A program made the position numbers and the translations under genes. This document shows, piece after piece, positions 651 to 39,465 of a stretch of 64,000 nt of DNA. Position 1 is the first letter of the stretch; each line of letters starts with the position of its first letter. The notes under the pieces were generated by a model that was given only the letters and a program-made list of their open reading frames with translations, searched no databases and had not been told where the DNA came from. Source of the stretch: a virus; the IMG/VR virus record IMGVR_UViG_3300027905_000001, positions 15,362 through 79,361 of that record. One strand, written 5' to 3'.

Positions 651-785
651 TTAAATCTTCTCCTTAACAGTCGTCTCTACCGTCTTAACTTTTCCGTCAT
701 GACAGACAATCTTGACTTCTCCATAGTCGGGGAGTGTGATCGTTTTATCCTTGCCGTCGTGGGATAGTGTGATTTTGTTTTGCAT
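651..785 (-). CDS. Hypothetical small protein (44 aa)
   Basis: ATG overlaps stop of upstream gene (TAATG); GGAGG 6 nt upstream; not in track (<60 aa). Confidence 0.4.
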   Translation of the reverse strand: MQNKITLSHDGKDKTITLPDYGEVKIVCHDGKVKTVETTVKEKI

Positions 786-1648
786 TAGTTACCTCCGTTG
801 GGTGATTTCCACAAGTCTCGTTCACGGCACAAAGGACATCTACTCAAGCCGTTATCTTCTTTGCTCTTGCAATTATAGCAGGTTATTGGTCGCCATCTGC
901 TGTATTTAAAGCACCTCAACCCATCGCAACTTTCGCCGATTGCTTCGGCACAATTCTGACATGACTTTTCTTTTACTTTTATTTCGATTGGCTCCCATTT
1001 ATTGAGATTGGTACATTTGTAATATTGTCGGCAACACCCCTCCTCAACATTTCTGCAAGTGGTACAGCCCTTCGCTTGTTTCTCTTCACTGGGCTCACTG
1101 CTTGCCCCCATTTTAATTAGTGCTTGTCCGAGTTCGAGGGCTTCTTGTGGGGTTAATTTTTGATTAAGCACGTAGTACGTGCCATGCATCTGAACACGAA
1201 CGCTGTCAATGCACCCACGGTCAACCTTCAGTGTCATATCATCTTTAGTTATCTCGACATTTTCTATCTCGCCATCCTCATCATTGGCATTGTAGATGGC
1301 GTTTATTTGTTCCATGCACTCATTAAAGGTAATAGCTCCACTATAAAGAAATGCCAGCCATTTAGACGCTTGTCCTTCTTTATCCACTGGCTTATATGTA
1401 ATTTTAACGTTGGACATTTTGGGTTCCTCCTCTAACTTCTTTATTGCTAACTTAAGTTCTTCGAGTACGATTTCAATTCCGTCAAGTGGGTGATGTTTAT
1501 CGAAAACATGATAACAACCGTCTGGAAGTCTTTTGTATCTATTTGCCTTTTTCCGCTTTTCGCTCAAGACTTTTATTAACTTCTCTATTCCGAAGCAAAT
1601 ACAGGTTAGAGACGTGATCGTTATTATGCAAAATGCCAAGGTTAGCAT
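785..1648 (-). CDS. Membrane-anchored Cys-rich protein
   Basis: Hydrophobic N-terminus, many Cys in C-terminal half; track ORF 785-1657, likely ATG at 1648 (GGAGGG 9 nt upstream, TAATG coupling). Confidence 0.5.
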   Translation of the reverse strand: MLTLAFCIITITSLTCICFGIEKLIKVLSEKRKKANRYKRLPDGCYHVFDKHHPLDGIEIVLEELKLAIKKLEEEPKMSNVKITYKPVDKEGQASKWLAFLYSGAITFNECMEQINAIYNANDEDGEIENVEITKDDMTLKVDRGCIDSVRVQMHGTYYVLNQKLTPQEALELGQALIKMGASSEPSEEKQAKGCTTCRNVEEGCCRQYYKCTNLNKWEPIEIKVKEKSCQNCAEAIGESCDGLRCFKYSRWRPITCYNCKSKEDNGLSRCPLCRERDLWKSPNGGN

Positions 1649-1980
1649 TAGTTGCAACCCTCCGATTCCTGCACTATCTCTACTCGCTTATCACAAATAG
1701 GACAGTGAATAGTCGGTCTGCCAACAAGCTTCCTGCTTATGTAAAGTTCAATCTTGCCACACCTTGGGCAGTCGCCGTATGTCATAATTCTAGGGTTTTT
1801 GACGCTTCCGTGGCCTACAGTTGGGATTAGTTGGCCTTCGTTTTTAGCTTTACACTTCTCCTTAGATCTATTTATGAAAATTATCATTGCCCACGAAAAG
1901 GCAACGCAAGATGCCATAAGAAGTATCCACGCAATCTCAAGAAAGAAGTTTGCTATCTGCTGGTTCATGCCGCACCTCAC
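1648..1980 (-). CDS. Small membrane protein with zinc-ribbon (CPRC...CPIC)
   Basis: Track ORF; TM segment then two CxxC pairs. Confidence 0.5.
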   Translation of the reverse strand: MRCGMNQQIANFFLEIAWILLMASCVAFSWAMIIFINRSKEKCKAKNEGQLIPTVGHGSVKNPRIMTYGDCPRCGKIELYISRKLVGRPTIHCPICDKRVEIVQESEGCN

Positions 1981-2498
1981 TTCGACTTCAATAACCTAAA
2001 CTTCTGTTTCGCATATTCAGGGATGAAATTATCTAAATCCTTTTGAAACAATAGGTAGAGATTGAGTGACAATCTATTCGACGAAAAGAAGTAGATCGGA
2101 TTGAAGTACCATTGAGTGATTACATCATCACCAATCTTTACCTCGATCTTAGCCATAATTCTTTTCTTAACCATCCTATTAAGGAATAAAACAGTATGTC
2201 TTTCGGTATCTCGGATTACGTTTGCCATTTGCGGTATGTCCATTGCCTTTATGCCACCATTGCCACGGTAGCCGATCATATTAGTTGTCGAGTAAACTTT
2301 CTTACTTAACAAAAACAGATTAGCTATATCAGACTTGGTTATTTCGTTTGGCAATTCTACATCCTGAAACGTTTTGACGAAACTGCTTTTATTCCAAAAG
2401 AGATAACCTTTTTCTTCGTCGAACATATCTTTGAAGTATGTCTTCTTTGTGCTCACAACGTTACCATGGTCATCTGTTATTTCGGTCGCCCTTATCAT
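1977..2498 (-). CDS. Hypothetical protein
   Basis: Track ORF, 173 aa, no recognisable motif. Confidence 0.45.
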   Translation of the reverse strand: MIRATEITDDHGNVVSTKKTYFKDMFDEEKGYLFWNKSSFVKTFQDVELPNEITKSDIANLFLLSKKVYSTTNMIGYRGNGGIKAMDIPQMANVIRDTERHTVLFLNRMVKKRIMAKIEVKIGDDVITQWYFNPIYFFSSNRLSLNLYLLFQKDLDNFIPEYAKQKFRLLKSK

Positions 2499-2659
2499 CG
2501 AATCACCTCTAAAATCGTGGGTACATTTAAGGCGTTCTATGTACCTGTAAAATTTGACTACCTAAAATGCTGAAACCCTTGGTATAAGCGACTTTAAGGG
2601 TTCTGGATTAAGTAAATCATGCAAACTCACATATATTATATACGTGTGAATCTGCATGA

Positions 2660-2968
2660 TTAGAGTTGTTTTGCGTCTACCTTCTCCACCCAAACTATAT
2701 CCCCATTAGCATCGAACTTCAGCTCATCATCATGCCTAGCTCTAGTTTGTTCGTGGCACTTCCTGCATAGGAGTTCGAGGTTATTCCAGCTATAGCACTT
2801 CTCAGGGTTGTTAACGGTGTCCCATGCTGTTATAGGGTCCTTGTGGTGGACTTCTTCGCCTTTGGATCCGCATTGCTCACAGAGACCGAACTTAGAGGCA
2901 AAGAAAGCTTTGCGGCATTTGATCCAGGCGCTTCGTCCGTAGAATAGTTTGAGTTGGCCTTGACTCAT
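2660..2968 (-). CDS. HNH endonuclease
   Basis: HNH motif EEVHHKDP...NLELLCRKCHEQ with CxxC zinc ligands. Confidence 0.8.
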   Translation of the reverse strand: MSQGQLKLFYGRSAWIKCRKAFFASKFGLCEQCGSKGEEVHHKDPITAWDTVNNPEKCYSWNNLELLCRKCHEQTRARHDDELKFDANGDIVWVEKVDAKQL

Positions 2969-3558
2969 TGGGTATCGTTTGCGATATCAACCGCATAGGG
3001 GAGTATCATTACCTTTAAGTTGGGGCATTGGGATTGTAGATCGTTGCGCAGCCTTTCTATATCGTCACAACGTAGTAATGCACCAAGTTTCAGGACTAAT
3101 GTATCGCTATTCATGATAGTAGCGGTGCTAATGATATAATTAGTCTGAAAACTCATCTTTTTGTTAATCTCTTCAAGCATCGATTTCACATCTCGCTCAG
3201 AGTATTCCTTTTCTCTACGCCATGTTACGGTTATTGCGTCGTTGCTTTCTTGTACTTGGACATTATAAGTTGGTGTAGATTCCGCAAGGCCAAGTAAGTC
3301 AAATCGGTTTGAGTAGCCCCTGTATATCATACTTCTAGTCATAAAGTCGTTCTCAACGGCTACGACAAGAACATCCCTAAGTACCTCAACTACTCCTTCT
3401 GGATTAGATTGCAAAAGGTCTTGGCTTATAGAGAATGTTCCTCTTCTGTCGAGCAGGACGCTTTCTTTGCGCTTGTTTTGGCAGAAAACGTTTTTACCTA
3501 AGTTACCCATTTTCCTCACTCCTTCTTGTTCGGTTAGGTCATCGTCTCTAGTGTTCAT
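2965..3558 (-). CDS. Hypothetical protein
   Basis: Track ORF; probable ATG at 3510 after GTGAGGAAA. Confidence 0.45.
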   Translation of the reverse strand: MNTRDDDLTEQEGVRKMGNLGKNVFCQNKRKESVLLDRRGTFSISQDLLQSNPEGVVEVLRDVLVVAVENDFMTRSMIYRGYSNRFDLLGLAESTPTYNVQVQESNDAITVTWRREKEYSERDVKSMLEEINKKMSFQTNYIISTATIMNSDTLVLKLGALLRCDDIERLRNDLQSQCPNLKVMILPYAVDIANDTQ

Positions 3559-4841: not shown

Positions 4842-4875
4842 AAGTTAAGATCTAATTTTGAAGGAGGTAAACGGC

Positions 4876-5271
4876 ATGACAAAGCTCGAAATTGCTAAAA
4901 ACATTAATGCCATCAAGGATTTAGGCCGCATTATTGCAACGAATTGGGAGATGGACTTTGTTGAAGGAGGAATCTATGACAATAAGGGCAATGTCGAAAG
5001 CTGGACTGACCGTGATAATTCAAAAGTGGCCTTTAAGCCCGAAAGCACCGGCACGATAACTTATGTCCTTCAATGCAATAAAGTCCCCTGTCACGTAGTA
5101 GACTACACTAGCACTGATGAAACTCGCGCCCTTGGCGCTACTGGCTGTGAAGATGAAGCTGAATGCCTGGTATTACCTGAAACAAAAATGATAATTACCT
5201 ACGTTTCCACTGAAGATGATTTCAACGAAATGGGATATTACTTAGTGGAAATGGAGATTGTCAATGAGTAA
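4876..5271 (+). CDS. Hypothetical protein (131 aa)
   Basis: ATG after GGAGG; track ORF 4858-5271. Confidence 0.5.
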   Translation: MTKLEIAKNINAIKDLGRIIATNWEMDFVEGGIYDNKGNVESWTDRDNSKVAFKPESTGTITYVLQCNKVPCHVVDYTSTDETRALGATGCEDEAECLVLPETKMIITYVSTEDDFNEMGYYLVEMEIVNE

Positions 5272-5869
5272 TCGCCATGGACACCCCCTTACTTCTGAAC
5301 AAAAGGGAGCGAGGGAGATTGAATATCGGAAAATGGCATTGGAATTTCATAAAGAAACAGGACGTTCGCCCCGGATGGCAGACTTACCTTTTCCTTATAA
5401 AATCTTTAAGGTTCACGACACGTGGAATGCATTTCTTGAAGATTGCGGGCTAGAGGTTAACCGTTTAACCACGGACGTTGAGAAATATTCTTTAATATTC
5501 GATTACAAGGAATTAGCTAAAAACTTAGAACGGACTCCTTACGCATTAGAATTTTATAAAAAATTTGGTTGCCAATACGCAGTCCGCAAATTATTTGGAT
5601 CATGGAATGCATTTGTTAAAGCTTGTGATCTTAAATTAAATAGATTCACAGGAGCAGAAAAAGAAGAACTTGTGGAACGCGTCTTGAAATTAGCTAAGAA
5701 ATTAGGTAAAACACCTACAACTCGTGAATTTAATGCACACGCAAAGAAAAGTAATCTATGCACGACGATGGTTATATGTCGGTATTTCGGAACATGGACG
5801 GAATGCCTTGAGTTTTGCGGGTTAGAGCCTAACCAAAATAAAAATTTTAAGCGTAGAAAGAAGGATTAG
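5264..5869 (+). CDS. Repeat protein with three W-NAF...CGLE units
   Basis: Repeats TWNAFLEDCGLE / GSWNAFVKACDL / GTWTECLEFCGLE. Confidence 0.5.
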   Translation: MSNRHGHPLTSEQKGAREIEYRKMALEFHKETGRSPRMADLPFPYKIFKVHDTWNAFLEDCGLEVNRLTTDVEKYSLIFDYKELAKNLERTPYALEFYKKFGCQYAVRKLFGSWNAFVKACDLKLNRFTGAEKEELVERVLKLAKKLGKTPTTREFNAHAKKSNLCTTMVICRYFGTWTECLEFCGLEPNQNKNFKRRKKD

Positions 5870-5871
5870 CG

Positions 5872-6036
5872 ATGGCAGAAACAACAACCGACGACCGCGA
5901 ACGCATGACACTACGCATCCCCCAGGACATTTGGCGCATGATCAAAATGGACCTGATTGACAAAAAAGAAAAGTCGGCCAATGAGCTTATCACAAACTTA
6001 ATATATGAGCACTACAAAGTACCCCGGCCGCAATAG
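5872..6036 (+). CDS. Ribbon-helix-helix (CopG/Arc-like) small DNA-binding protein (54 aa)
   Basis: MTLRIPQDIWRMIKMDL... beta-strand plus two-helix pattern; not in track (<60 aa). Confidence 0.45.
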   Translation: MAETTTDDRERMTLRIPQDIWRMIKMDLIDKKEKSANELITNLIYEHYKVPRPQ

Positions 6037-6086
6037 CTGGGGGTTTTCTTTACCTAAAAATACTTAATATTTATTGTCTTAATGCC

Positions 6087-6115
6087 TTGACACCACGACA
6101 TAAAAGATGTATTAT
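6087..6115 (+). promoter_or_regulatory. Sigma-A-type promoter (TTGACA-17-TATTAT)
   Basis: Shares CTTGACACCAYGAYATAA with the 4823 region. Confidence 0.5.
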
Positions 6116-6287
6116 TAACACATGGAAAACAGCACTCCAGCCCAATCCAGTGCAACAAACGCTTCCCCCGGCCAATTGCGGTCCGGGTCCGCCAAGAAGC
6201 CGAGAGAGAAAAGTTGACCGTGTGTCAGGGAAGAAGATTAATCCCGACAGGCTACAAAGGGAGCCGGGGAAAAAGGAGTTTTAAATT

Positions 6288-6497
6288 ATGAAACAAACTT
6301 ATTACAGCGTTGGTTATTACTCAGGAAGATCGAACAGCACTAGCACGGCGTTTTTTGATACTAAAGAGGCGGCTGAAAAATTTGCAGATCATGATTACAG
6401 GGATAACGTGGTAGCGCATCACGTGAGCAAGCCTGAGACGATTGCGAAATACGATGAGCTAGTTGCTATGACGGCGTTTGAGCTTAGAGACCGTTAG
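6288..6497 (+). CDS. Hypothetical protein
   Basis: Track ORF; AGGAG upstream. Confidence 0.5.
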   Translation: MKQTYYSVGYYSGRSNSTSTAFFDTKEAAEKFADHDYRDNVVAHHVSKPETIAKYDELVAMTAFELRDR

Positions 6498-6610
6498 GAT
6501 TTGCAGATGGCACCGGCCAGCACCCGGTGTAATGCACTAGCAGGCGTCCAAAGTCGCCGCAAATGCATCCCGACAGCTCGCAAGGAACGGGGAAAAGGAG
6601 GTCAGGACAG

Positions 6611-7057
6611 ATGCTCTATCACAGATTTACTAACTCATCAAACGTAATGTCCAACTGGGGTCACGCAATGTTTGCGGCCAACAGGGACGCGGTCGAAAAT
6701 TACGGTAGTAAAGAGTTTATCTTTAAATCATCTAGGGACAATAGCAAAACGATCAAGTCGCTCAAATCACTGATTATCAAAACTTGGAAGTACGATCAAA
6801 AAAATGGCTTTACCGGGGACTTTGGCAACGGCTGCACAGATGATTACTACTACAACGTCAAGGATAATGCAGTGGACGCTATTAGTATTTACAACAGCTT
6901 TGACCCGTCTAGCGTTGTGGAGAGCGCCGATGCTTGGGACTCCGAGCTTTATCAATGGTTTTGGGAGCGTATCGCGGAGCCTAACGGCATTATGGCAGTT
7001 ACAACTCAAGATGGGGCAATAGTATTTGATGCAGACTTAATTAAGGAGGTATGTTAA
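6611..7057 (+). CDS. Hypothetical protein
   Basis: ATG 6611 after AAAGGAGG; track ORF 6563-7057. Confidence 0.5.
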   Translation: MLYHRFTNSSNVMSNWGHAMFAANRDAVENYGSKEFIFKSSRDNSKTIKSLKSLIIKTWKYDQKNGFTGDFGNGCTDDYYYNVKDNAVDAISIYNSFDPSSVVESADAWDSELYQWFWERIAEPNGIMAVTTQDGAIVFDADLIKEVC

Positions 7058-7318
7058 ATGTCTAATGAGGATGACGTTATGTTTTTCAAAATAGCAAAGG
7101 TTAAAGCCGCTATCAGCAGGGTCCTAGACGGGTGCGTAAACGAGTTGCCGGATATCCAGTTTGGATGGAGCGGATCAGTTATCGAGGTTTATTTATCCGG
7201 CGGTAATTATCAAGTCCGCAACCTTATCGAGTCCCATTTTGTAAATAGCAGGAGGTATAAAGGCGTTACAATTACAAACAACGACACCAAAAAGCGTATC
7301 AGCTTTATTTTAAATTAA
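7058..7318 (+). CDS. Hypothetical protein
   Basis: Track ORF. Confidence 0.45.
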   Translation: MSNEDDVMFFKIAKVKAAISRVLDGCVNELPDIQFGWSGSVIEVYLSGGNYQVRNLIESHFVNSRRYKGVTITNNDTKKRISFILN

Positions 7319-7339
7319 GAAATTGAAGGAGTGTTAAAA

Positions 7340-7558
7340 ATGAAACGATTAGACATTTTTAAAAGCGAAGGTGGATACAGATTAGCATTGGGAATCTACA
7401 ACGACAGCCCCGTAATTGACAAGTCTCCTTGGTTCGAAACCAAGGAAGAGGCCGAAAAAGCAAGGCGCGAAGTCATAGAAGAAGATGAGCGAGAAGCCAA
7501 AATTGAGCAGTATATCCAAGATGGCAATATCGAGGCCCTCGAAAACATGGATAAGTAA
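7340..7558 (+). CDS. Hypothetical protein
   Basis: ATG after GAAGGAG; acidic C-terminus. Confidence 0.45.
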   Translation: MKRLDIFKSEGGYRLALGIYNDSPVIDKSPWFETKEEAEKARREVIEEDEREAKIEQYIQDGNIEALENMDK

Positions 7559-7652
7559 TTGCAGAGGATTAGGAGCCTAAAAACTCCTAATAATGCGCTA
7601 GGCAAGCGGTTCCAAGCCCGCGCCAATCGCAATTTTGAAAGGTGGAGCAATC

Positions 7653-7889
7653 ATGAAATACACCATAGCTGAATACCACGGCATAGACCGGCACCAAATG
7701 CAAGCCCATACCGAGGAAATCATTACCAAGCTTGAATTTATTCGAACAACATGCACGGATGCCGAATCGCTCGAATACACTGACGCCCAACTCGAATTTT
7801 ACCGCGAAGAACTAGCCAGTAAATCCCTGCTTATGTCATCATGGTGGGAAGTTGAGAACTACATGCGGAAAGGTAGGAAAATAGCATGA
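7653..7889 (+). CDS. Hypothetical protein
   Basis: ATG after AAAGGTGGAG. Confidence 0.45.
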   Translation: MKYTIAEYHGIDRHQMQAHTEEIITKLEFIRTTCTDAESLEYTDAQLEFYREELASKSLLMSSWWEVENYMRKGRKIA

Positions 7890-8077
7890 CCATCTACATC
7901 CATGAGTTTTACAAGGACAAGGAAAAGGCGCTCGCATTGGCTGAACTACCGGACGAACTAGATTATCACCGATTTGTCCACGGCTGTGAGCCTAAAAAGG
8001 TGAACATAGTCCCTTATTGGGCAGATTGCGACAAGTACAAGGCGAATAAGTCCACCATGACACTGTTTATTAGCTAA
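7886..8077 (+). CDS. Hypothetical small protein
   Basis: Track ORF, 4-nt overlap with upstream gene. Confidence 0.4.
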   Translation: MTIYIHEFYKDKEKALALAELPDELDYHRFVHGCEPKKVNIVPYWADCDKYKANKSTMTLFIS

Positions 8078-8157
8078 CATCAAGGCTTTTAGCCTTGGCT
8101 CAGCCGCTTTTTGAGCGGTTCAGCGAGGACTAAAAACGAATGAAAGAGGTAATTTAC

Positions 8158-9078
8158 ATGAGCATGATCAACGAACAACTAGCCCAACGATCAAAGGAAA
8201 ACATGAGTTTTTCCGACTACAAACCCGGCAGCGCAACGGCTGAATTCAACCAGGAAATAGCCAACGTCACCACGTTAGTTGAATCGGCCAAGCTCAGGGT
8301 ATCCGACGAAGGGAAAGCCAAGCTAGATCGTTTCCTAGCCTCTTACACCTCTCGTTATGCCGCATGGACCAATAAGCGCAACGCAAATGGTGCAGGACAT
8401 GTTAGTGTTATGATCGCAGGCCCAGCTAACTACAACATGAGAGCGCACGAAAAGTACATGAGCCGTGAAGGTAATCTCTGGAAAGAATACGAGGAATTCC
8501 GAAACCCTGAGTATAAAATTTCCTCCATCGTCGCAGGTGACAGAGTTATAAAATCCAATGATGTCAACGCTATTGAAAAATTGCAGGAGAAAATAGACGG
8601 ACTTGAAAAAATGCAGGAATTAATGAAAGCTTGTAACGCCATCATCCGTAAAAAGAAGCTGACCGACGAAGAGAAGATTGCTGCAATGGTAGAAGCTGGA
8701 GCCAGCGAAAAAGCCGCAAAAGAAACCTTGACCCCTAATTTTATGGGCAGAATAGGTTTTGCCTCTTATTCGCTCAGTAATAACAACGCAACGATCCGAA
8801 ACGCCAAGCAACGAATATCCCAGCTTGAGAAGATCGCTGCACGCGGCACGCAAGAGACTGTCATAGAATCAGACGCGGAGGAAACAAACGGCATACGCAT
8901 AGTTGACAATGTTGAAGCGCATCGGCTGCAAATATTCTTTAATGGCAAGCCATCGGCAGAAGTTCGAACACAGTTAAAGAAAAATGGATTTAGGTGGACG
9001 CCTAGTATTTCCGCGTGGCAGTCGTATCGAAGTGAGAGCGCAAACCGGGCAGCGCGTGAAATAGTGGCAGCAATGTAA
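8158..9078 (+). CDS. Hypothetical protein, C-terminus resembles DUF3560-like domain
   Basis: C-terminal motif LQIFFNGKPSAEVRTQLKKNGFRWTPSISAWQ; assignment from memory. Confidence 0.4.
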   Translation: MSMINEQLAQRSKENMSFSDYKPGSATAEFNQEIANVTTLVESAKLRVSDEGKAKLDRFLASYTSRYAAWTNKRNANGAGHVSVMIAGPANYNMRAHEKYMSREGNLWKEYEEFRNPEYKISSIVAGDRVIKSNDVNAIEKLQEKIDGLEKMQELMKACNAIIRKKKLTDEEKIAAMVEAGASEKAAKETLTPNFMGRIGFASYSLSNNNATIRNAKQRISQLEKIAARGTQETVIESDAEETNGIRIVDNVEAHRLQIFFNGKPSAEVRTQLKKNGFRWTPSISAWQSYRSESANRAAREIVAAM

Positions 9079-9162
9079 TTATATCGCGGGACCATCTTTG
9101 GCCCTGCTCCAAATGTCCGATTATGGGCACTTGGAGGAGAATCAAAATTTAGAGGTGATCAA

Positions 9163-9351
9163 GTGGCGGAAACGTGGTTCTCTCGACTTAAAACAGAGAT
9201 AGAAGATTCGAGAGACTTGCAAGAAATTCTTGGTGTTAAAGTTATCGAGCATCTTTTGTGGAACAATATCTCTCGCGAACAATACGAAACTCTCTCTAGC
9301 CTGCGCGTAAAAAGAATCCTGGAAAATTGGCACGAAGAATTTTTGGCTTAA
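9163..9351 (+). CDS. Hypothetical small protein
   Basis: Track ORF (GTG start). Confidence 0.35.
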   Translation: MAETWFSRLKTEIEDSRDLQEILGVKVIEHLLWNNISREQYETLSSLRVKRILENWHEEFLA

Positions 9352-9406
9352 ATCCACGCCGGACTATTCCGGTTTTTTCCCAACTAAAATTAAGGAGGAA
9401 TAACTT

Positions 9407-10021
9407 ATGTTTCATGCGTTCACGCTCGAACAAGCGAACCTCAGAGAGGTCCAAGGTTGGAAGGTCGGCCAACATGTCCAAGTCAAAGAATGGCGTGGTA
9501 CTTACGAAATCGAAGGCTACCACCAATACGGAAGGCAAAACGAGTACACCACTGTATACCTTGCCAAGCTCAAGAAAGACGGTACTAAGAGCAAATACAG
9601 CGGCGATACACCTATCGCTAACCTCATGCCATTGGGAGCGGCACAACCAACAACAGACAGCGCAGGACGAACAGCACTGCAGGCGGCACAGGAGCTATTC
9701 GGTAGCGGCTTTGCTAAACACGGATGGTATAACACGGATCGCGAATCACTGGTAAAGGTTGAGACGATCAGTAAGACAGGACGCGTCAAGGTGCAAGATA
9801 TAAGCGTCAAGGCTGGAATTACGGCACGTTCAAAGACTGTAGATGGACATAAAGTTTACAGTCAAGAAGATCGCCTGGTAAACTTTGCGGATCTCGAATA
9901 CGGTCTAAGTGGAGATATAAAAACATTCACGCCGCGCCTTTTTTGGGGTGAATGGGGCTTTTGGCATGATGGGGAAATTATCAAGGCCCCAGATATGAAG
10001 CTTACGTGGTTGCTAGATTAA
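9407..10021 (+). CDS. Hypothetical protein
   Basis: Track ORF with AGGAGG upstream. Confidence 0.5.
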   Translation: MFHAFTLEQANLREVQGWKVGQHVQVKEWRGTYEIEGYHQYGRQNEYTTVYLAKLKKDGTKSKYSGDTPIANLMPLGAAQPTTDSAGRTALQAAQELFGSGFAKHGWYNTDRESLVKVETISKTGRVKVQDISVKAGITARSKTVDGHKVYSQEDRLVNFADLEYGLSGDIKTFTPRLFWGEWGFWHDGEIIKAPDMKLTWLLD

Positions 10022-10532: not shown

Positions 10533-10896
10533 TTATTCGTCCTCGAATCGACAACCGCGGTTACTCTTCATCATCCGATCTCTTGCCATAAACGCCATAC
10601 TGTTCTCGAACTCTTCCCATTTTCGAGCTGTCTCGTATCGCTTGTATGCACTTAGGTATTCGTCGCAATATGAAGCAGGAACATTGGCGCAGCTAGAACA
10701 ACTAGAACTAGAGCGTCCTATATCGCGATATATTCGGGGTTTGTAGCATCTGCATCGAGGCGGTTCTCTCACTAGTTGCTCCCTCCTTAATCCATAGGCA
10801 ATGGTCAACGTCATACTTCCTGCATAAGGCGCAGTTGGTTCGTTCAAGGCTTTTGTCTATTGCGCTGAATTCTTTGCAGCTTCTGTTCTCTCCCAT
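10533..10896 (-). CDS. Cys-rich hypothetical protein(s); two overlapping frames, possible frameshift
   Basis: Track ORFs 10708-10896 and 10533-10847 overlap in different frames. Confidence 0.3.
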
Positions 10897-10933
10897 AAAT
10901 TAGCCCTCATTTTAGGATAATTTTCGAACAATA

Positions 10934-11068
10934 TTAAAGCATGCTTTTTTAGTTTGAATTAAAGCATGCTTTTTTGGTTTTTGTTTATGTAATTAAGGCA
11001 TGCTTTTTCTATGTCTGAAATTAAGGCGTGCTTTTATGTACCACCATCAAGATTAAGGCATGCTTTTT
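10934..11068. repeat. Five direct copies of ATTAARGCRTGCTTTT (palindromic core AAGCATGCTT)
   Basis: Copies starting 10934, 10959, 10993, 11021, 11053, spaced 25-34 bp, in a ~440-bp intergenic region. Confidence 0.75.
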
Positions 11069-11342
11069 GAGTAAAAAAGTGAACACCCTCAATTAAGAAG
11101 GTGTTCGAGTGAGAATAGAGAAGGAGGACAAAATTAAAAGCCCTTGCGAGCTTGTCAAATATTCAAAATAAAGCCGGTTCCAGATCGTAGAACCGGATTC
11201 TCCTTCTACACACGGTAGATGAGTTAAATAAACGAAGCACCGAACGACCACGATACGTAGGTCAATTCGATGCTTCTCAATGTTATAATCATAAACCTTT
11301 TACAGCTCAAATGTGGTAATAAATCGGTAATATTCTGGTAAT

Positions 11343-11915
11343 CTATACGTATTTACTAAAATAAAGGTATCTTTGAAATAATGGCCCTAATATCTCCCAC
11401 AATACTTCAAGCGCTTCTCTGTTAATCTTCCTTAACATTTCGTTTGTGATATAAACTCTACCAACAGAATGGCGCTCGTTAAACACAATCTCAATGTTCC
11501 TCCATGTCATGACTTCAAAGTATTTAGACCTAATAACGGTTTCCTGTTCCCTCGTTAATGCCTTCAGCGCTTCATCAATCTGCTCCATCTCAAGCGTCTT
11601 AAACCTCATCTTCGACCGATCCTCGTCAATCCAAGCCTCAACTAATTCCCTCGTAACCTCTCTGCGCCCTGCTATATGCTCGGTCGGCGAAGTTGTAGTT
11701 GTTGCGTGCGGCATACCGATAATTCTACTTACGCTGTTCTCGAATAACCATAGCTCTCCCGCGCTCAATGCTTGTTCCCATACCAGGATTCTCTGCATAG
11801 TTGTCACGACTTCTGCTTTATGTTTTTTATAGAGTTTCAAGCGTTCTTCGAGTATGTTTTGGGATTCTTTTATCATTGCTATGGTTATTACCTCCTCTCT
11901 ACCGTTTTGCGCCAT
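11343..11915 (-). CDS. Putative sigma-70 region-4-like transcription regulator
   Basis: C-terminal LTREQETVIRSKYFEVMTWRNIEIVFNE HTH pattern. Confidence 0.35.
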   Translation of the reverse strand: MAQNGREEVITIAMIKESQNILEERLKLYKKHKAEVVTTMQRILVWEQALSAGELWLFENSVSRIIGMPHATTTTSPTEHIAGRREVTRELVEAWIDEDRSKMRFKTLEMEQIDEALKALTREQETVIRSKYFEVMTWRNIEIVFNERHSVGRVYITNEMLRKINREALEVLWEILGPLFQRYLYFSKYV

Positions 11916-12434: not shown

Positions 12435-12830
12435 TCATGATTGTTCCTCCCTATACTTTTCTTTCAACCTAAGATATTCTTCGCGCTCGTGCTTCTCATG
12501 GCGTTCCTTCTGCTTTCTATCAGATTCCTCTCTGGCTAACCTTCTAGCCTCGCGAAGTTTATCATAATCGTCTCCTCCGATAACACCGAGTTTCTTAAGC
12601 TCTTCAACTAGCCATTTTTGTCCATCTTTTTCAAAGAGATATTGTTGAACGGAATGTGATTTATAAATCCTTATTTCACTGCTATCTCCGTCATCATCTT
12701 GCTTAGCAACCATCAATCCACCGTCTGTAGTGGCTATGGTTATCGCTTCTGCGAACTGAGCACAATGAATGAATGCGATTGTTTTACCTATGAGATCTTC
12801 ACCTTTTTCGATAAAATACATTTTATTCAA
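12435..12830 (-). CDS. Hypothetical protein with charged coiled C-terminus
   Basis: Track ORF. Confidence 0.45.
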   Translation of the reverse strand: MNKMYFIEKGEDLIGKTIAFIHCAQFAEAITIATTDGGLMVAKQDDDGDSSEIRIYKSHSVQQYLFEKDGQKWLVEELKKLGVIGGDDYDKLREARRLAREESDRKQKERHEKHEREEYLRLKEKYREEQS

Positions 12831-13434
12831 CTTCCTCCGTTTCCCAATAACTCATTTCGGATTCCATTGCTTCGATAAGTTGTTCGATGGTTTCTATGGG
12901 TTCTTCATAACCAGTGAAGGCTTCGAATTCAGATTCGGTGGCCCTGGCTTCGTTGAAAATCTTGATTAACTTTGATAGTTTTATTAGATTTTCTTTCATT
13001 GCTTCATCCATTACCTCGGTTGGTCCGTCCCACTGCCCCAAACTCTTAATATCAAACACGATCCCCACACAGAAAAGCGCATCATCTTCCATAATCTTAA
13101 ACTCGGCATGATGAATATCCGTCTCATATGCCCAGGCCACTTCTCCTTCATTATGCCAAATAGCTTCTATCTGTTTACATTTCTGTTTCGCTAAAGCTGA
13201 ATGAACGCATTCGCAATCACATTCCTCGAAAATTCCGTGTTCATCGAGGTAAATTGTCTTTCCATCAAAACATCCAACTTCTTCGTTAATAGCTCCCCTA
13301 AATTCTGCGTTGTCATCCGAATATCCGAACACTACGACGAACCCGAGTTCCTTAGCCCTTATTGTATCCACTTTGCTTATCTCATTACCCATTTCATTAC
13401 CGTCCAACATCTCGGCAAACTCCTGTATATTCAT
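12823..13434 (-). CDS. Acidic hypothetical protein
   Basis: Track ORF. Confidence 0.45.
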   Translation of the reverse strand: MNIQEFAEMLDGNEMGNEISKVDTIRAKELGFVVVFGYSDDNAEFRGAINEEVGCFDGKTIYLDEHGIFEECDCECVHSALAKQKCKQIEAIWHNEGEVAWAYETDIHHAEFKIMEDDALFCVGIVFDIKSLGQWDGPTEVMDEAMKENLIKLSKLIKIFNEARATESEFEAFTGYEEPIETIEQLIEAMESEMSYWETEEVE

Positions 13435-13664
13435 TACTTTTCCTCCTTAGCCGAATTCAAGTTCCTAATCCTAAATCCCAAACCCCTCAACTTCTCCCTA
13501 ATCTCATTAATCGAAAAGCTGGACATATTCCTTATCTCTGGCAATCCGAGATACGACATCTTAGTCAAATCCTCAAGGGTATTGATTCCTGCATTTCTCA
13601 GGCAACGCAAAGTTCTTGCGGTTAATCCGAGCTCTTCGATTGTTTTATTGAGCGTGTCGTTCAT
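13434..13664 (-). CDS. RNA polymerase alpha-subunit C-terminal-domain-like (HhH) protein
   Basis: IEELGLTARTLRCLRNAGINTLEDL matches alpha-CTD helix-hairpin-helix signature. Confidence 0.5.
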   Translation of the reverse strand: MNDTLNKTIEELGLTARTLRCLRNAGINTLEDLTKMSYLGLPEIRNMSSFSINEIREKLRGLGFRIRNLNSAKEEK

Positions 13665-13674
13665 ACTTTTACTC

Positions 13675-13881
13675 CTATTCCATCTTTTGTTTCGGCTTCA
13701 ATTTGCCGCGCTTCTTATCCCGAACATACTGGATGAACTCCTTCTTGATATACAGTAAATCCAAAACCTTACCGAACATCCATAAATAAGCTTTTATCCC
13801 CAGCGCAACGATAATCATGGCCATAATGAGTAGTGATATCGTGACTATTATCCAAGCTGTCCAGTAGTTAATTGTTGTCAT
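13675..13881 (-). CDS. Small membrane protein
   Basis: Single TM segment. Confidence 0.4.
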   Translation of the reverse strand: MTTINYWTAWIIVTISLLIMAMIIVALGIKAYLWMFGKVLDLLYIKKEFIQYVRDKKRGKLKPKQKME

Positions 13882-37986: not shown

Positions 37987-39465
37987 ATGCATGGAATACT
38001 ATACCTGCGCAAAAGCAGAGAAGATGAGCAATATGAAAAAAATACTGGCGAAGATGTTCTGCAAACCCATCGCGAACGTTTGGTTATGCTCTGTAAGTCG
38101 CGGGAAATTACCTTCGACGAACGCGCAGAGGTACGAAGCGGTGATACGATCGCAGGTCGGCCTAAATTTCAGAATATACTAGATACGGATCTCCCCTCTG
38201 GTCAATACTCTTGTATCATTGTTACTGAAATTTCTCGACTTGGCAGAGGGGACATGGAGGATGCAGGAAGAATATACAAAACCATAATCCACAACGAGAT
38301 TAAGATTGTCACGCCGAATAAAATATATGATCCGTTAAACCCTTCCGATCTTCGCCAGCTAAGGTTCGAGCTATTCATGTCTCGGGAGGAATACGAAAGC
38401 ATTAAGGAAAGACTATGGAATAATAGAAATTACCGGGCAACACAAGGTTATGCCGGCAATTATATTGTCACGCTCGGTTTTCGCCAGTCCAGGGGGATAG
38501 TCGAGATAATCCCCGAAGAGGAAAAATTAGTGCTTGAAATATTTACGATGCGCTCTGAAAATTACTCCTATCAAGAAATAGCGGATTACTTTAATTCCAG
38601 AAATTTAAAGACAAAACGCGGAACAAAGTATCATGAATCTACAATATATAAGATATTAAAAAATCCCAGGTATATAGGAGTGGCTAAGTGGCAAGGCAAG
38701 GAATATATAGCTAAGCACCCTGCGATAGTCTCATTGGACCTATGGAACTCTGCGCAGGATATCAACGCTGAAAGACATCACAAGAGACGAGGGTCAAAAA
38801 ACGATAACCCTTATCTAGTAGAGCTATACTGTCGAGAATGCGGGCAAAGGATGTACGGGGAACGCTCTACCCCGCAAAGGGTAATAGATGGTGTTCGAAA
38901 GCTATATAAAAGCAGAGACATCTATATTTGTAGGGGCAGAAAAAGCATCCCTAAATGTTGGCACCACATAGGAGCCAGCGTTGTTCACTCGACCATCCTT
39001 GATGAGCTTGGGAAGATAATATCAGATCCGCAGATTTTTCTTGAGTTAGTCAACGAGAGAGAATCAAGACTTGGCGTCGATACTAATGGTTTATCAGATC
39101 AAGTGGATGAATTAAATAAGCAAGTCAAGGATAAAAACATCCTTTTGGTAAAAATAGAGAACGATTATGAAAAAGGCGACCTATCCGCTTTGCTATATAC
39201 TAAACACGTTGAAAAAATATCCAAAGAAATAGCATCTATTGAAGGTAGGATAAAAAAAATTAAGGCCGATTTATTAAAATCAGCCATTAAGATTAGTCCT
39301 CCTATGGAATTACAATCAATTTTGAAAACATTCCTAAATAACTGGAACGCCTATCCTAATAGTGACAAGAAGCTCATCATTAGATCATTTCTTCCCAGGG
39401 TTGAGGTGAACAAGCAGGGTGAATTCTTTATCGCTATTACTTTGCCTGATTCTATCGAAATTTAG
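37987..39465 (+). CDS. Large serine recombinase (phage integrase, serine type)
   Basis: N-terminal resolvase-type catalytic domain (YLRKSREDE), recombinase domain, Cys-rich zinc ribbon, C-terminal coiled coil; 492 aa. Confidence 0.8.
   Translation: MHGILYLRKSREDEQYEKNTGEDVLQTHRERLVMLCKSREITFDERAEVRSGDTIAGRPKFQNILDTDLPSGQYSCIIVTEISRLGRGDMEDAGRIYKTIIHNEIKIVTPNKIYDPLNPSDLRQLRFELFMSREEYESIKERLWNNRNYRATQGYAGNYIVTLGFRQSRGIVEIIPEEEKLVLEIFTMRSENYSYQEIADYFNSRNLKTKRGTKYHESTIYKILKNPRYIGVAKWQGKEYIAKHPAIVSLDLWNSAQDINAERHHKRRGSKNDNPYLVELYCRECGQRMYGERSTPQRVIDGVRKLYKSRDIYICRGRKSIPKCWHHIGASVVHSTILDELGKIISDPQIFLELVNERESRLGVDTNGLSDQVDELNKQVKDKNILLVKIENDYEKGDLSALLYTKHVEKISKEIASIEGRIKKIKADLLKSAIKISPPMELQSILKTFLNNWNAYPNSDKKLIIRSFLPRVEVNKQGEFFIAITLPDSIEI

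Follow-up and report, generated by a model that had tools for sequence, protein, structure and literature searches.

[quoted passage not shown] The features with defined positions that matter for its interpretation are given here in the order in which the region is read.

37987–39465, plus strand: large serine recombinase
13672–13676, minus strand: Shine-Dalgarno sequence AGGAG, read from the sequence, 7 nt 5' of the ATG at 13664–13662
13434–13664, minus strand: alpha-CTD-like ORF of 76 aa with an ATG start (ORF listing of the window, Pfam, PDB, AlphaFold2 with Foldseek)
12823–13434, minus strand: 203-aa gene, phrog_25176, directly downstream of the alpha-CTD gene (ORF listing)
11343–11915, minus strand: 190-aa ORF for an Ltr-like putative late transcriptional activator with a sigma-70 region-4-like C-terminal part
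11282–11342, minus strand: three ATTACC direct repeats with 11-bp spacing, then a TATAAC -10-like element, directly after the Ltr-like stop codon
3870–4769: small terminase subunit (terS) of the prophage, beyond an island of opposite-strand genes

The translation of the 76-aa ORF is MNDTLNKTIEELGLTARTLRCLRNAGINTLEDLTKMSYLGLPEIRNMSSFSINEIREKLRGLGFRIRNLNSAKEEK. It contains, as an exact match, the motif IEELGLTARTLRCLRNAGINTLEDL, which a sequence-only reading of this DNA had compared to the helix-hairpin-helix of the alpha-CTD. The resemblance is far beyond chance: the Pfam family PF03118 (RNA_pol_A_CTD) matches the protein over profile positions 8–66 of 67, with an E-value of 1.6e-17 and a score of 63.4 bits at a curated gathering cut-off of 23.8 bits. 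When the protein was searched against PDB sequences with phmmer, 51 of the 54 matches with E ≤ 1 were RNA polymerase alpha subunits. The best match is the alpha-CTD of Bacillus subtilis (1z3e_B, E = 1.1e-10), and the top chains were crystallised with Spx. The protein is identical to SPF51162.1 (UniRef100_A0A2U3LH07) from Candidatus Desulfosporosinus infrequens, which UniProt names an alpha-CTD-domain protein, and the protein cluster of this exact sequence has one member.

The same reading had proposed that a predicted structure be compared with the RpoA CTD. We obtained an AlphaFold2 model (pLDDT 80.2, pTM 0.67), which superimposes on the B. subtilis alpha-CTD with an rmsd of 1.1 Å over 67 columns. 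This domain (1z3e_B) is the best Foldseek match in the PDB, with TM scores of 0.84 (query) and 0.95 (target), and the top 50 matches are all alpha-CTDs; identity to the B. subtilis domain in the Foldseek alignments is ~37%. The N-terminal domain of alpha (alpha-NTD), which serves dimerisation and assembly, is absent from the 76-aa protein, and since it is lacking the protein is not RpoA. Of the NCBIfam rpoA equivalogs only the C-terminal ~65 positions align, scoring at most 57 bits against cut-offs of 228–523. The term "free-standing" used in the earlier reading is therefore apt: the protein is a complete alpha-CTD on its own, without the alpha-NTD, encoded among phage genes. It also matches NCBIfam PRK07758 weakly (E = 0.006), and neither the 76-aa protein nor eight of its relatives matched any PHROG family.

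The gene has a strong predicted Shine-Dalgarno site. The TAG stop codon of the ORF directly upstream (13675–13881) falls within this site, so the genes are closely packed within one operon. At the other end, the TAA stop codon of the alpha-CTD gene and the ATG of the gene that follows share bases in the sequence TAATG (13436–13432), which suggests translational coupling between the alpha-CTD gene and the 203-aa gene. Read together, the Shine-Dalgarno site and the stop and start overlaps represent the packing expected of a real gene in an operon. The 203-aa product had no match in Pfam, NCBIfam or the PDB. Its homologues (cluster 4) occur at six loci, which correspond to four distinct phages after duplicate contigs were merged; every locus with a homologue has an alpha-CTD ORF as well, with the homologue invariably placed between that ORF and the Ltr-like gene. 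A 185-aa ORF overlapping on the plus strand (13201–13758) is low in complexity and hydrophobic and has no support.

Judged by its gene content, the DNA around the alpha-CTD gene is phage-derived. The prophage, which belongs to a peat-soil Desulfosporosinus, extends from ~37.5 kb down to ~3.9 kb of the window and is read leftwards on the minus strand. Next after the serine recombinase in reading order are two Rha regulators and then a C5 methylase, followed by SbcC-like and RecT-like recombination proteins with an N6/N4 methylase, and after these a Lin1244_N protein, an IstB/DnaC-like ATPase and a radical-SAM protein. We read the Lin1244_N and IstB/DnaC-like ATPase genes as probable replication genes. 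The upstream neighbours of the alpha-CTD gene encode HNH-AP2, RecU and DUF1599 proteins. Beyond it come four small genes, the Ltr-like gene (phrog_36, "transcriptional regulator"; the alpha-CTD gene lies 1.5 kb upstream of it), the opposite-strand island and terS.

The island (4858–10021, plus strand) separates the late activator from the terminase genes; among its products are a homing-endonuclease-like protein with HNH repeats and one that resembles a primase (phrog_19458). Similar opposite-strand islands are present in L005–L010 and L013–L017 of the related loci described below. Among the minus-strand ORFs downstream of terS (785–3558), we recognised no gene for a large terminase subunit, a portal or a capsid protein, and the only match was to phrog_31110; the prophage could be defective or could have had its structural module replaced. 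When the 10–25 kb region of the window was compared with 50,697 phage records by Megablast, nothing matched.

The Ltr-like protein is called as 177 aa in public records, with a start at 11876. It shows weak similarity to DUF722, sigma-70 region 4 and ECF sigma factors, and the Sigma70_r4_2 match in one homologue is also weak (E = 0.0035). The structures closest to its model (pLDDT 83.5) are isolated sigma region-4 domains, with TM scores to the target of 0.63–0.82 and Foldseek E-values of 0.2–3, which are not significant. PDB sequence searches with two neighbouring proteins were uninformative. In L021 and L024, homologues of the Ltr-like gene lie upstream of the terminase genes, with 0–3 small or accessory genes between them. 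Such a position and domain signature have been described for the Ltr superfamily, the late activators of Gram-positive phages (PMC3753634). RinA-like proteins have ~130 aa (PMC3753634), whereas the protein described here is longer, with 177–190 aa. We call it "Ltr-like", a putative member of the superfamily: its position fits, and the sigma region-4 similarity is weak. In L021, the Ltr-like gene is separated from the terminase genes by an inserted HicA/HicB toxin-antitoxin pair (6111–6711).

The repeats and the TATAAC element at 11282–11342 probably represent activator boxes followed by the late promoter and leader. Most of the related loci have two or three short direct repeats and then a TATAAC/TATAAT-like element within ~60 nt after the Ltr-like stop codon, an arrangement that is clearest in L002, L004, L016, L021 and L024. 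Repeats present in three copies are ~11 bp apart (ATTACC in the window and in L004, AAAAGTACC in L021), and those present in two copies (L016, L002 and L024) are 21–28 bp apart. In most loci the -10-like element is followed by a hairpin and then by a small Cys-rich ORF.

A separate repeat array occupies 10933–11066 on the minus strand. Here AAAGCAYGCYTTAAT is directly repeated five times, with 25–34 bp from one start to the next (0.06 expected by chance), and the core of the repeat, AAAGCATGCTTT, is a 12-bp palindrome. The array follows two terminator-like hairpins (11196–11174 and 11106–11081), and a TAAAAT -10-like element and a small Cys-rich ORF (10708–10896) come shortly after it. None of the 25 related loci has the array, which looks like an operator array for a dimeric regulator. 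We considered the array as a target site for the alpha-CTD-like protein and rejected this, given that absence and a core palindrome typical of dimeric helix-turn-helix regulators.

An exhaustive HMMER search with the 76-aa protein returned 2741 representatives with E ≤ 0.001. The best 150 of these are mostly long proteins, bacterial or metagenomic, of 200–2200 aa with 2–10 tandem alpha-CTD repeats. One close single-domain relative is found among these 150: P0086, with 75 aa and 51% identity, whose gene lies 71 bp upstream of a gene for a protein 74% identical to the Ltr-like protein of the window. Since the Ltr-like protein is better conserved than the alpha-CTD-like proteins, we used it as a handle for finding related loci. 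The search yielded 14 IMG/VR loci with 75–82% identity and more distant homologues on longer contigs (63–71%). We then scanned the loci for alpha-CTD ORFs in six frames, using phmmer and a family HMM, and merged duplicate contigs.

In 11 of the 14 distinct testable loci (the window, L002, L006, L007/9, L008/10, L011/12, L013, L014, L016, L017 and L024/25), the Ltr-like gene is preceded on its own strand, at a distance of 0.07–3.1 kb, by an alpha-CTD-like ORF. L005 and L015 stand outside this tally, as they have too little upstream sequence. The six-frame scan found no alpha-CTD ORF in three loci that carry the activator (L004, L021 and L022/23). The ORF is therefore accessory, and we rejected the idea that the activator depends on its product as an obligate partner. 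When the genes of these mosaic loci were clustered all against all, the alpha-CTD family proved to be the activator's most widespread neighbour.

The dN/dS ratio of the alpha-CTD-like genes is 0.07–0.33 in the four pairs with estimable dS, and the family is under purifying selection. The alpha-CTD-like proteins diverge faster than the activator, with a median pairwise identity of 43% versus 76%, and between the distances of the two proteins there is only a weak correlation (Mantel r = 0.34, p = 0.02). [quoted passage not shown] Shared ancestry may account for part of the synteny, since all loci belong to one lineage; the synteny is suggestive of functional coupling and does not amount to proof.

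In L008 (6150–6909, equivalent to L010 7–766), two alpha-CTD-like genes are arranged in tandem. The first encodes an 84-aa "SW-type" copy and the second a 167-aa protein, in which a ~95-aa N-terminal domain without assignment precedes a canonical-looking alpha-CTD (VRNMGRRC hairpin). This layout recalls the two domains of most annotated phage alpha-CTD proteins.

Other searches added little to the family. An IMG/VR scan with the alpha-CTD profile gave no match, a word-indexed protein search returned the 76-aa protein only, and a two-sequence profile added two relatives. Tblastn searches of the phage collection with the 76-aa protein and with one relative found 13 and 17 records, respectively, which are unannotated except for those of phages Goe8 and Mazun. 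One of them, L018, is host rpoA contamination within a ribosomal operon (rpsK-rpsD-rpoA-rplQ). We assume that the others are alike, and these records therefore provide no evidence that the gene is common in phages.

To compare the interaction surfaces, we aligned the phage family with the alpha-CTDs of B. subtilis and Escherichia coli; counts refer to 13 phage proteins. The E. coli alpha sequence and numbering used here agree with the published determinants. Arg17 of the 76-aa protein aligns with the minor-groove residue R265 of E. coli (R261 of B. subtilis), whose equivalent is kept in 12 of the 13 proteins. Position 293, at the entry of the hairpin, is occupied by R45 and is an arginine in all 13. 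These DNA-facing residues are the most conserved positions of the family outside the core, and the core activity conserved across it is probably to bind DNA by means of the minor-groove arginine. The equivalents of C269 and S299 are also retained. The net charge of the protein is +3, and that of most relatives is +3 to +8.

Other DNA-contacting positions differ from the host domain. In the second hairpin, G296 is replaced by S48 (glycine is present in only 3 of the 13 family members), K297 by S49 (mostly arginine in the relatives) and K298 by F50 (lysine or arginine in 7 of 13, otherwise varied). The DNA contact N268 is R20, and the other 12 members have asparagine (five) or histidine (five) in most cases. 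In B. subtilis, R261 and G292 (R265 and G296 in E. coli) are reported to be the two non-substitutable alpha-CTD residues (PMC4495994). The 76-aa protein keeps the equivalent of R261 and has lost that of G292. Since G292 is reported to be essential, UP-type DNA binding may be weak, and strong binding of UP elements by the protein is doubtful.

The surfaces through which the host domain contacts proteins have diverged as well. We take the "261 determinant" to comprise D259 and E261, which contact sigma region 4, and the "287 determinant" to comprise T285–L289 together with G315, R317 and L318, which contact CAP. E261 is a glycine in the 76-aa protein and is not conserved in the relatives. Residues 285–289, TEVEL in E. 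coli, are SYLGL in the 76-aa protein and SW.[DE]L in most relatives, so that the position of E286 carries a surface aromatic residue (Trp in 8 of 13, Y38 here). B. subtilis Y263, which is important for Spx binding, corresponds to a leucine. As the 261 and 287 determinants are not conserved, it is doubtful whether the protein mimics the known surfaces for protein docking. Judging from this alignment, it is unlikely to match the host domain in affinity for UP elements or to reproduce the surfaces on which other proteins are known to dock. Of the "alpha-CTD mimic" proposed earlier, homology, fold and free-standing architecture thus hold, whereas the host interaction surfaces are not faithfully copied: several DNA contacts other than R265 and the 261 and 287 determinants have diverged. 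The conserved exposed aromatic residue hints at a protein partner specific to the family.

As the best-supported reading, we tentatively propose that the 76-aa protein is a trans-acting modulator of initiation by host RNA polymerase, which would compete with the tethered host alpha-CTDs. Since it has no alpha-NTD, it cannot assemble into the polymerase and could act only by occupying the DNA or protein targets of the alpha-CTD in trans. A temperate Desulfosporosinus phage would express it from the distal end of the early/replication operon, at the same time as the sigma-region-4-like Ltr-like activator or slightly earlier. Its DNA targets would be A/T-rich minor-groove sites beside promoters, contacted through Arg17 and the R45-N46 hairpin entry, and proteins that dock on the alpha-CTD may be further or alternative targets. 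Competition for these targets would damp host or early-phage promoters that depend on UP elements or activators during the switch to late transcription.

A decoy or competitor of this kind is a plausible candidate mechanism. The isolated alpha-CTD is generally regarded as a weak DNA binder, and a monomeric competitor may therefore be inefficient. There is precedent for phages that act on this very interaction: G1 gp67 blocks contacts between the alpha-CTD and UP elements, and phage T4 ADP-ribosylates R265 (PMC3694059). The conserved place of the gene upstream of a sigma-region-4-like activator supports a general role in the timing of transcription, and not a decoy specifically. On a further, rather improbable reading, the phage would encode separate small copies of both RNA polymerase modules that read the DNA upstream of promoters, an alpha-CTD and a sigma-region-4-like activator. 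The free alpha-CTD would in that case represent a new class of takeover factor, a subunit-domain decoy, which would either deprive host and early promoters of help from UP elements or activators or act as the partner of the sigma-region-4-like activator on late promoters.

The protein might instead be a generic small helix-hairpin-helix DNA binder for replication, recombination or packaging, in which the alpha-CTD fold is reused as a module. Such reuse is widespread outside RpoA, as the multi-repeat proteins that make up most of the best 150 of 2741 matches illustrate, and the genes upstream code for RecU, the DUF1599 protein and HNH endonucleases. Moreover, one phage protein with the domain, gp26 of Microbacterium phage Mazun, is annotated only as a "DNA binding protein". 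However, across the mosaic loci the position of the gene follows the late activator and not any replication or recombination gene, and the family has no conserved recombination or packaging partner. We regard a generic binder as rather unlikely, and the finding would be ordinary if the protein were nothing else.

A role as a co-factor of the late activator is a little less likely still. Here, the alpha-CTD-like protein would bind beside or to the sigma-region-4-like Ltr protein at the late promoter, so that the pair of alpha-CTD and sigma region 4 found on normal UP/-35 DNA would be recreated in trans and RNA polymerase would be recruited to, or stabilised on, the late genes. The repeated occurrence of the gene ahead of the Ltr-like gene (11 of 14 distinct loci), the sigma region-4-like part of the Ltr-like protein, the probable activator boxes and promoter directly after its gene, and the conserved aromatic at the E286 position, which lies in a known protein-contact patch, are all consistent with this. 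The distances of the two proteins also correlate, but a correlation this weak would be expected from linkage alone. In the three phages without the alpha-CTD ORF, the activator is 63–82% identical to that of the window, which indicates that the activator works alone; the presence or absence of the ORF is independent of the type of repeat box. In addition, divergence is far greater among the alpha-CTD-like proteins than in the activator, and the D259/E261 contacts to sigma region 4 are not conserved.

That the ORF is spurious or a dead fragment of host rpoA caught by the prophage, as its short length and single-member protein cluster might suggest, is very improbable and largely refuted by its intact start, Shine-Dalgarno site and whole domain, by homologues under purifying selection in 10 other distinct phage loci, by a locus unlike the rpsK-rpsD-rpoA-rplQ contamination seen in a "phage" record, and by ~37% identity to Firmicutes alpha-CTDs (B. 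subtilis, Foldseek), which together with the family-wide selection led us to reject recent capture of host rpoA.

With the alpha-CTDs of RpoA from B. subtilis (1z3e_B) and E. coli (1lb2, 3n97), the 76-aa protein shares the PF03118 domain and the compact predicted helix-hairpin-helix fold, whose structured parts are helical. The host domain is tethered to the alpha-NTD, whereas the 76-aa protein is untethered; the host domain has G-K-K in the second hairpin and N268, whereas the phage protein has S-S-F and Arg. The rpoA gene resides in the rpsK-rpsD-rpoA-rplQ operon (L018 for comparison), and the 76-aa gene resides among prophage genes. Outside RpoA, the same domain occurs in bacterial multi-repeat alpha-CTD proteins and in the small PRK07758-type family, but there it belongs to cellular proteins, most of which are much longer and have 2–10 repeats. 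We know of no assigned function for the large family of non-RpoA repeat proteins and of no link between them and late regulation in phages.

Phage proteins with an alpha-CTD domain have been annotated before. Among them are gp005 of Bacillus phage vB_BmeM-Goe8 ("RNA polymerase subunit alpha"), about a dozen BFVD entries, including proteins of Rhodococcus phage Finch and Mycobacterium phage Mithril, several "uncultured Caudovirales" proteins, and ORF40 of Erythrobacter phage vB_EliS-L02, in which the domain is known by annotation only (PMC9127768). No PHROG family matches any of these annotated proteins, and literature searches on phage alpha-CTD proteins found no experimental or functional study. 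The annotated proteins mostly have 105–240 aa with an extra N-terminal domain, whereas the 76-aa protein is the bare domain and belongs to a separate phage lineage of the Desulfosporosinus/Desulfitobacterium type, in which it is encoded upstream of an Ltr-like activator. By sequence comparison, it is a new, minimal and divergent member of this annotated group. What is new here is the recurrent position of the gene upstream of the activator, the purifying selection and the residue-level case against a faithful mimic. The recurrent position beside a late activator leads to a concrete hypothesis that is inexpensive to test.

The closest functional parallels act on the same contacts by other means. 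G1 gp67, from a Staphylococcus aureus phage, binds sigma region 4, and the T4 proteins that ADP-ribosylate R265, Alt and ModA, modify alpha covalently, whereas the 76-aa protein is proposed to compete as a copy of the domain. Neither G1 gp67 nor the T4 enzymes have any sequence or fold relationship to it, and the analogy is functional only: the proposed outcome, a selective loss of UP-element- or activator-dependent transcription, would be the same (PMC3694059). If the proposal of a trans-acting modulator is correct, the 76-aa protein would offer a small tool with which to dissect alpha-CTD-dependent regulation in Firmicutes, and a domain copy acting in trans would represent a third, very simple strategy beside binders such as G1 gp67 and covalent modification as in T4.
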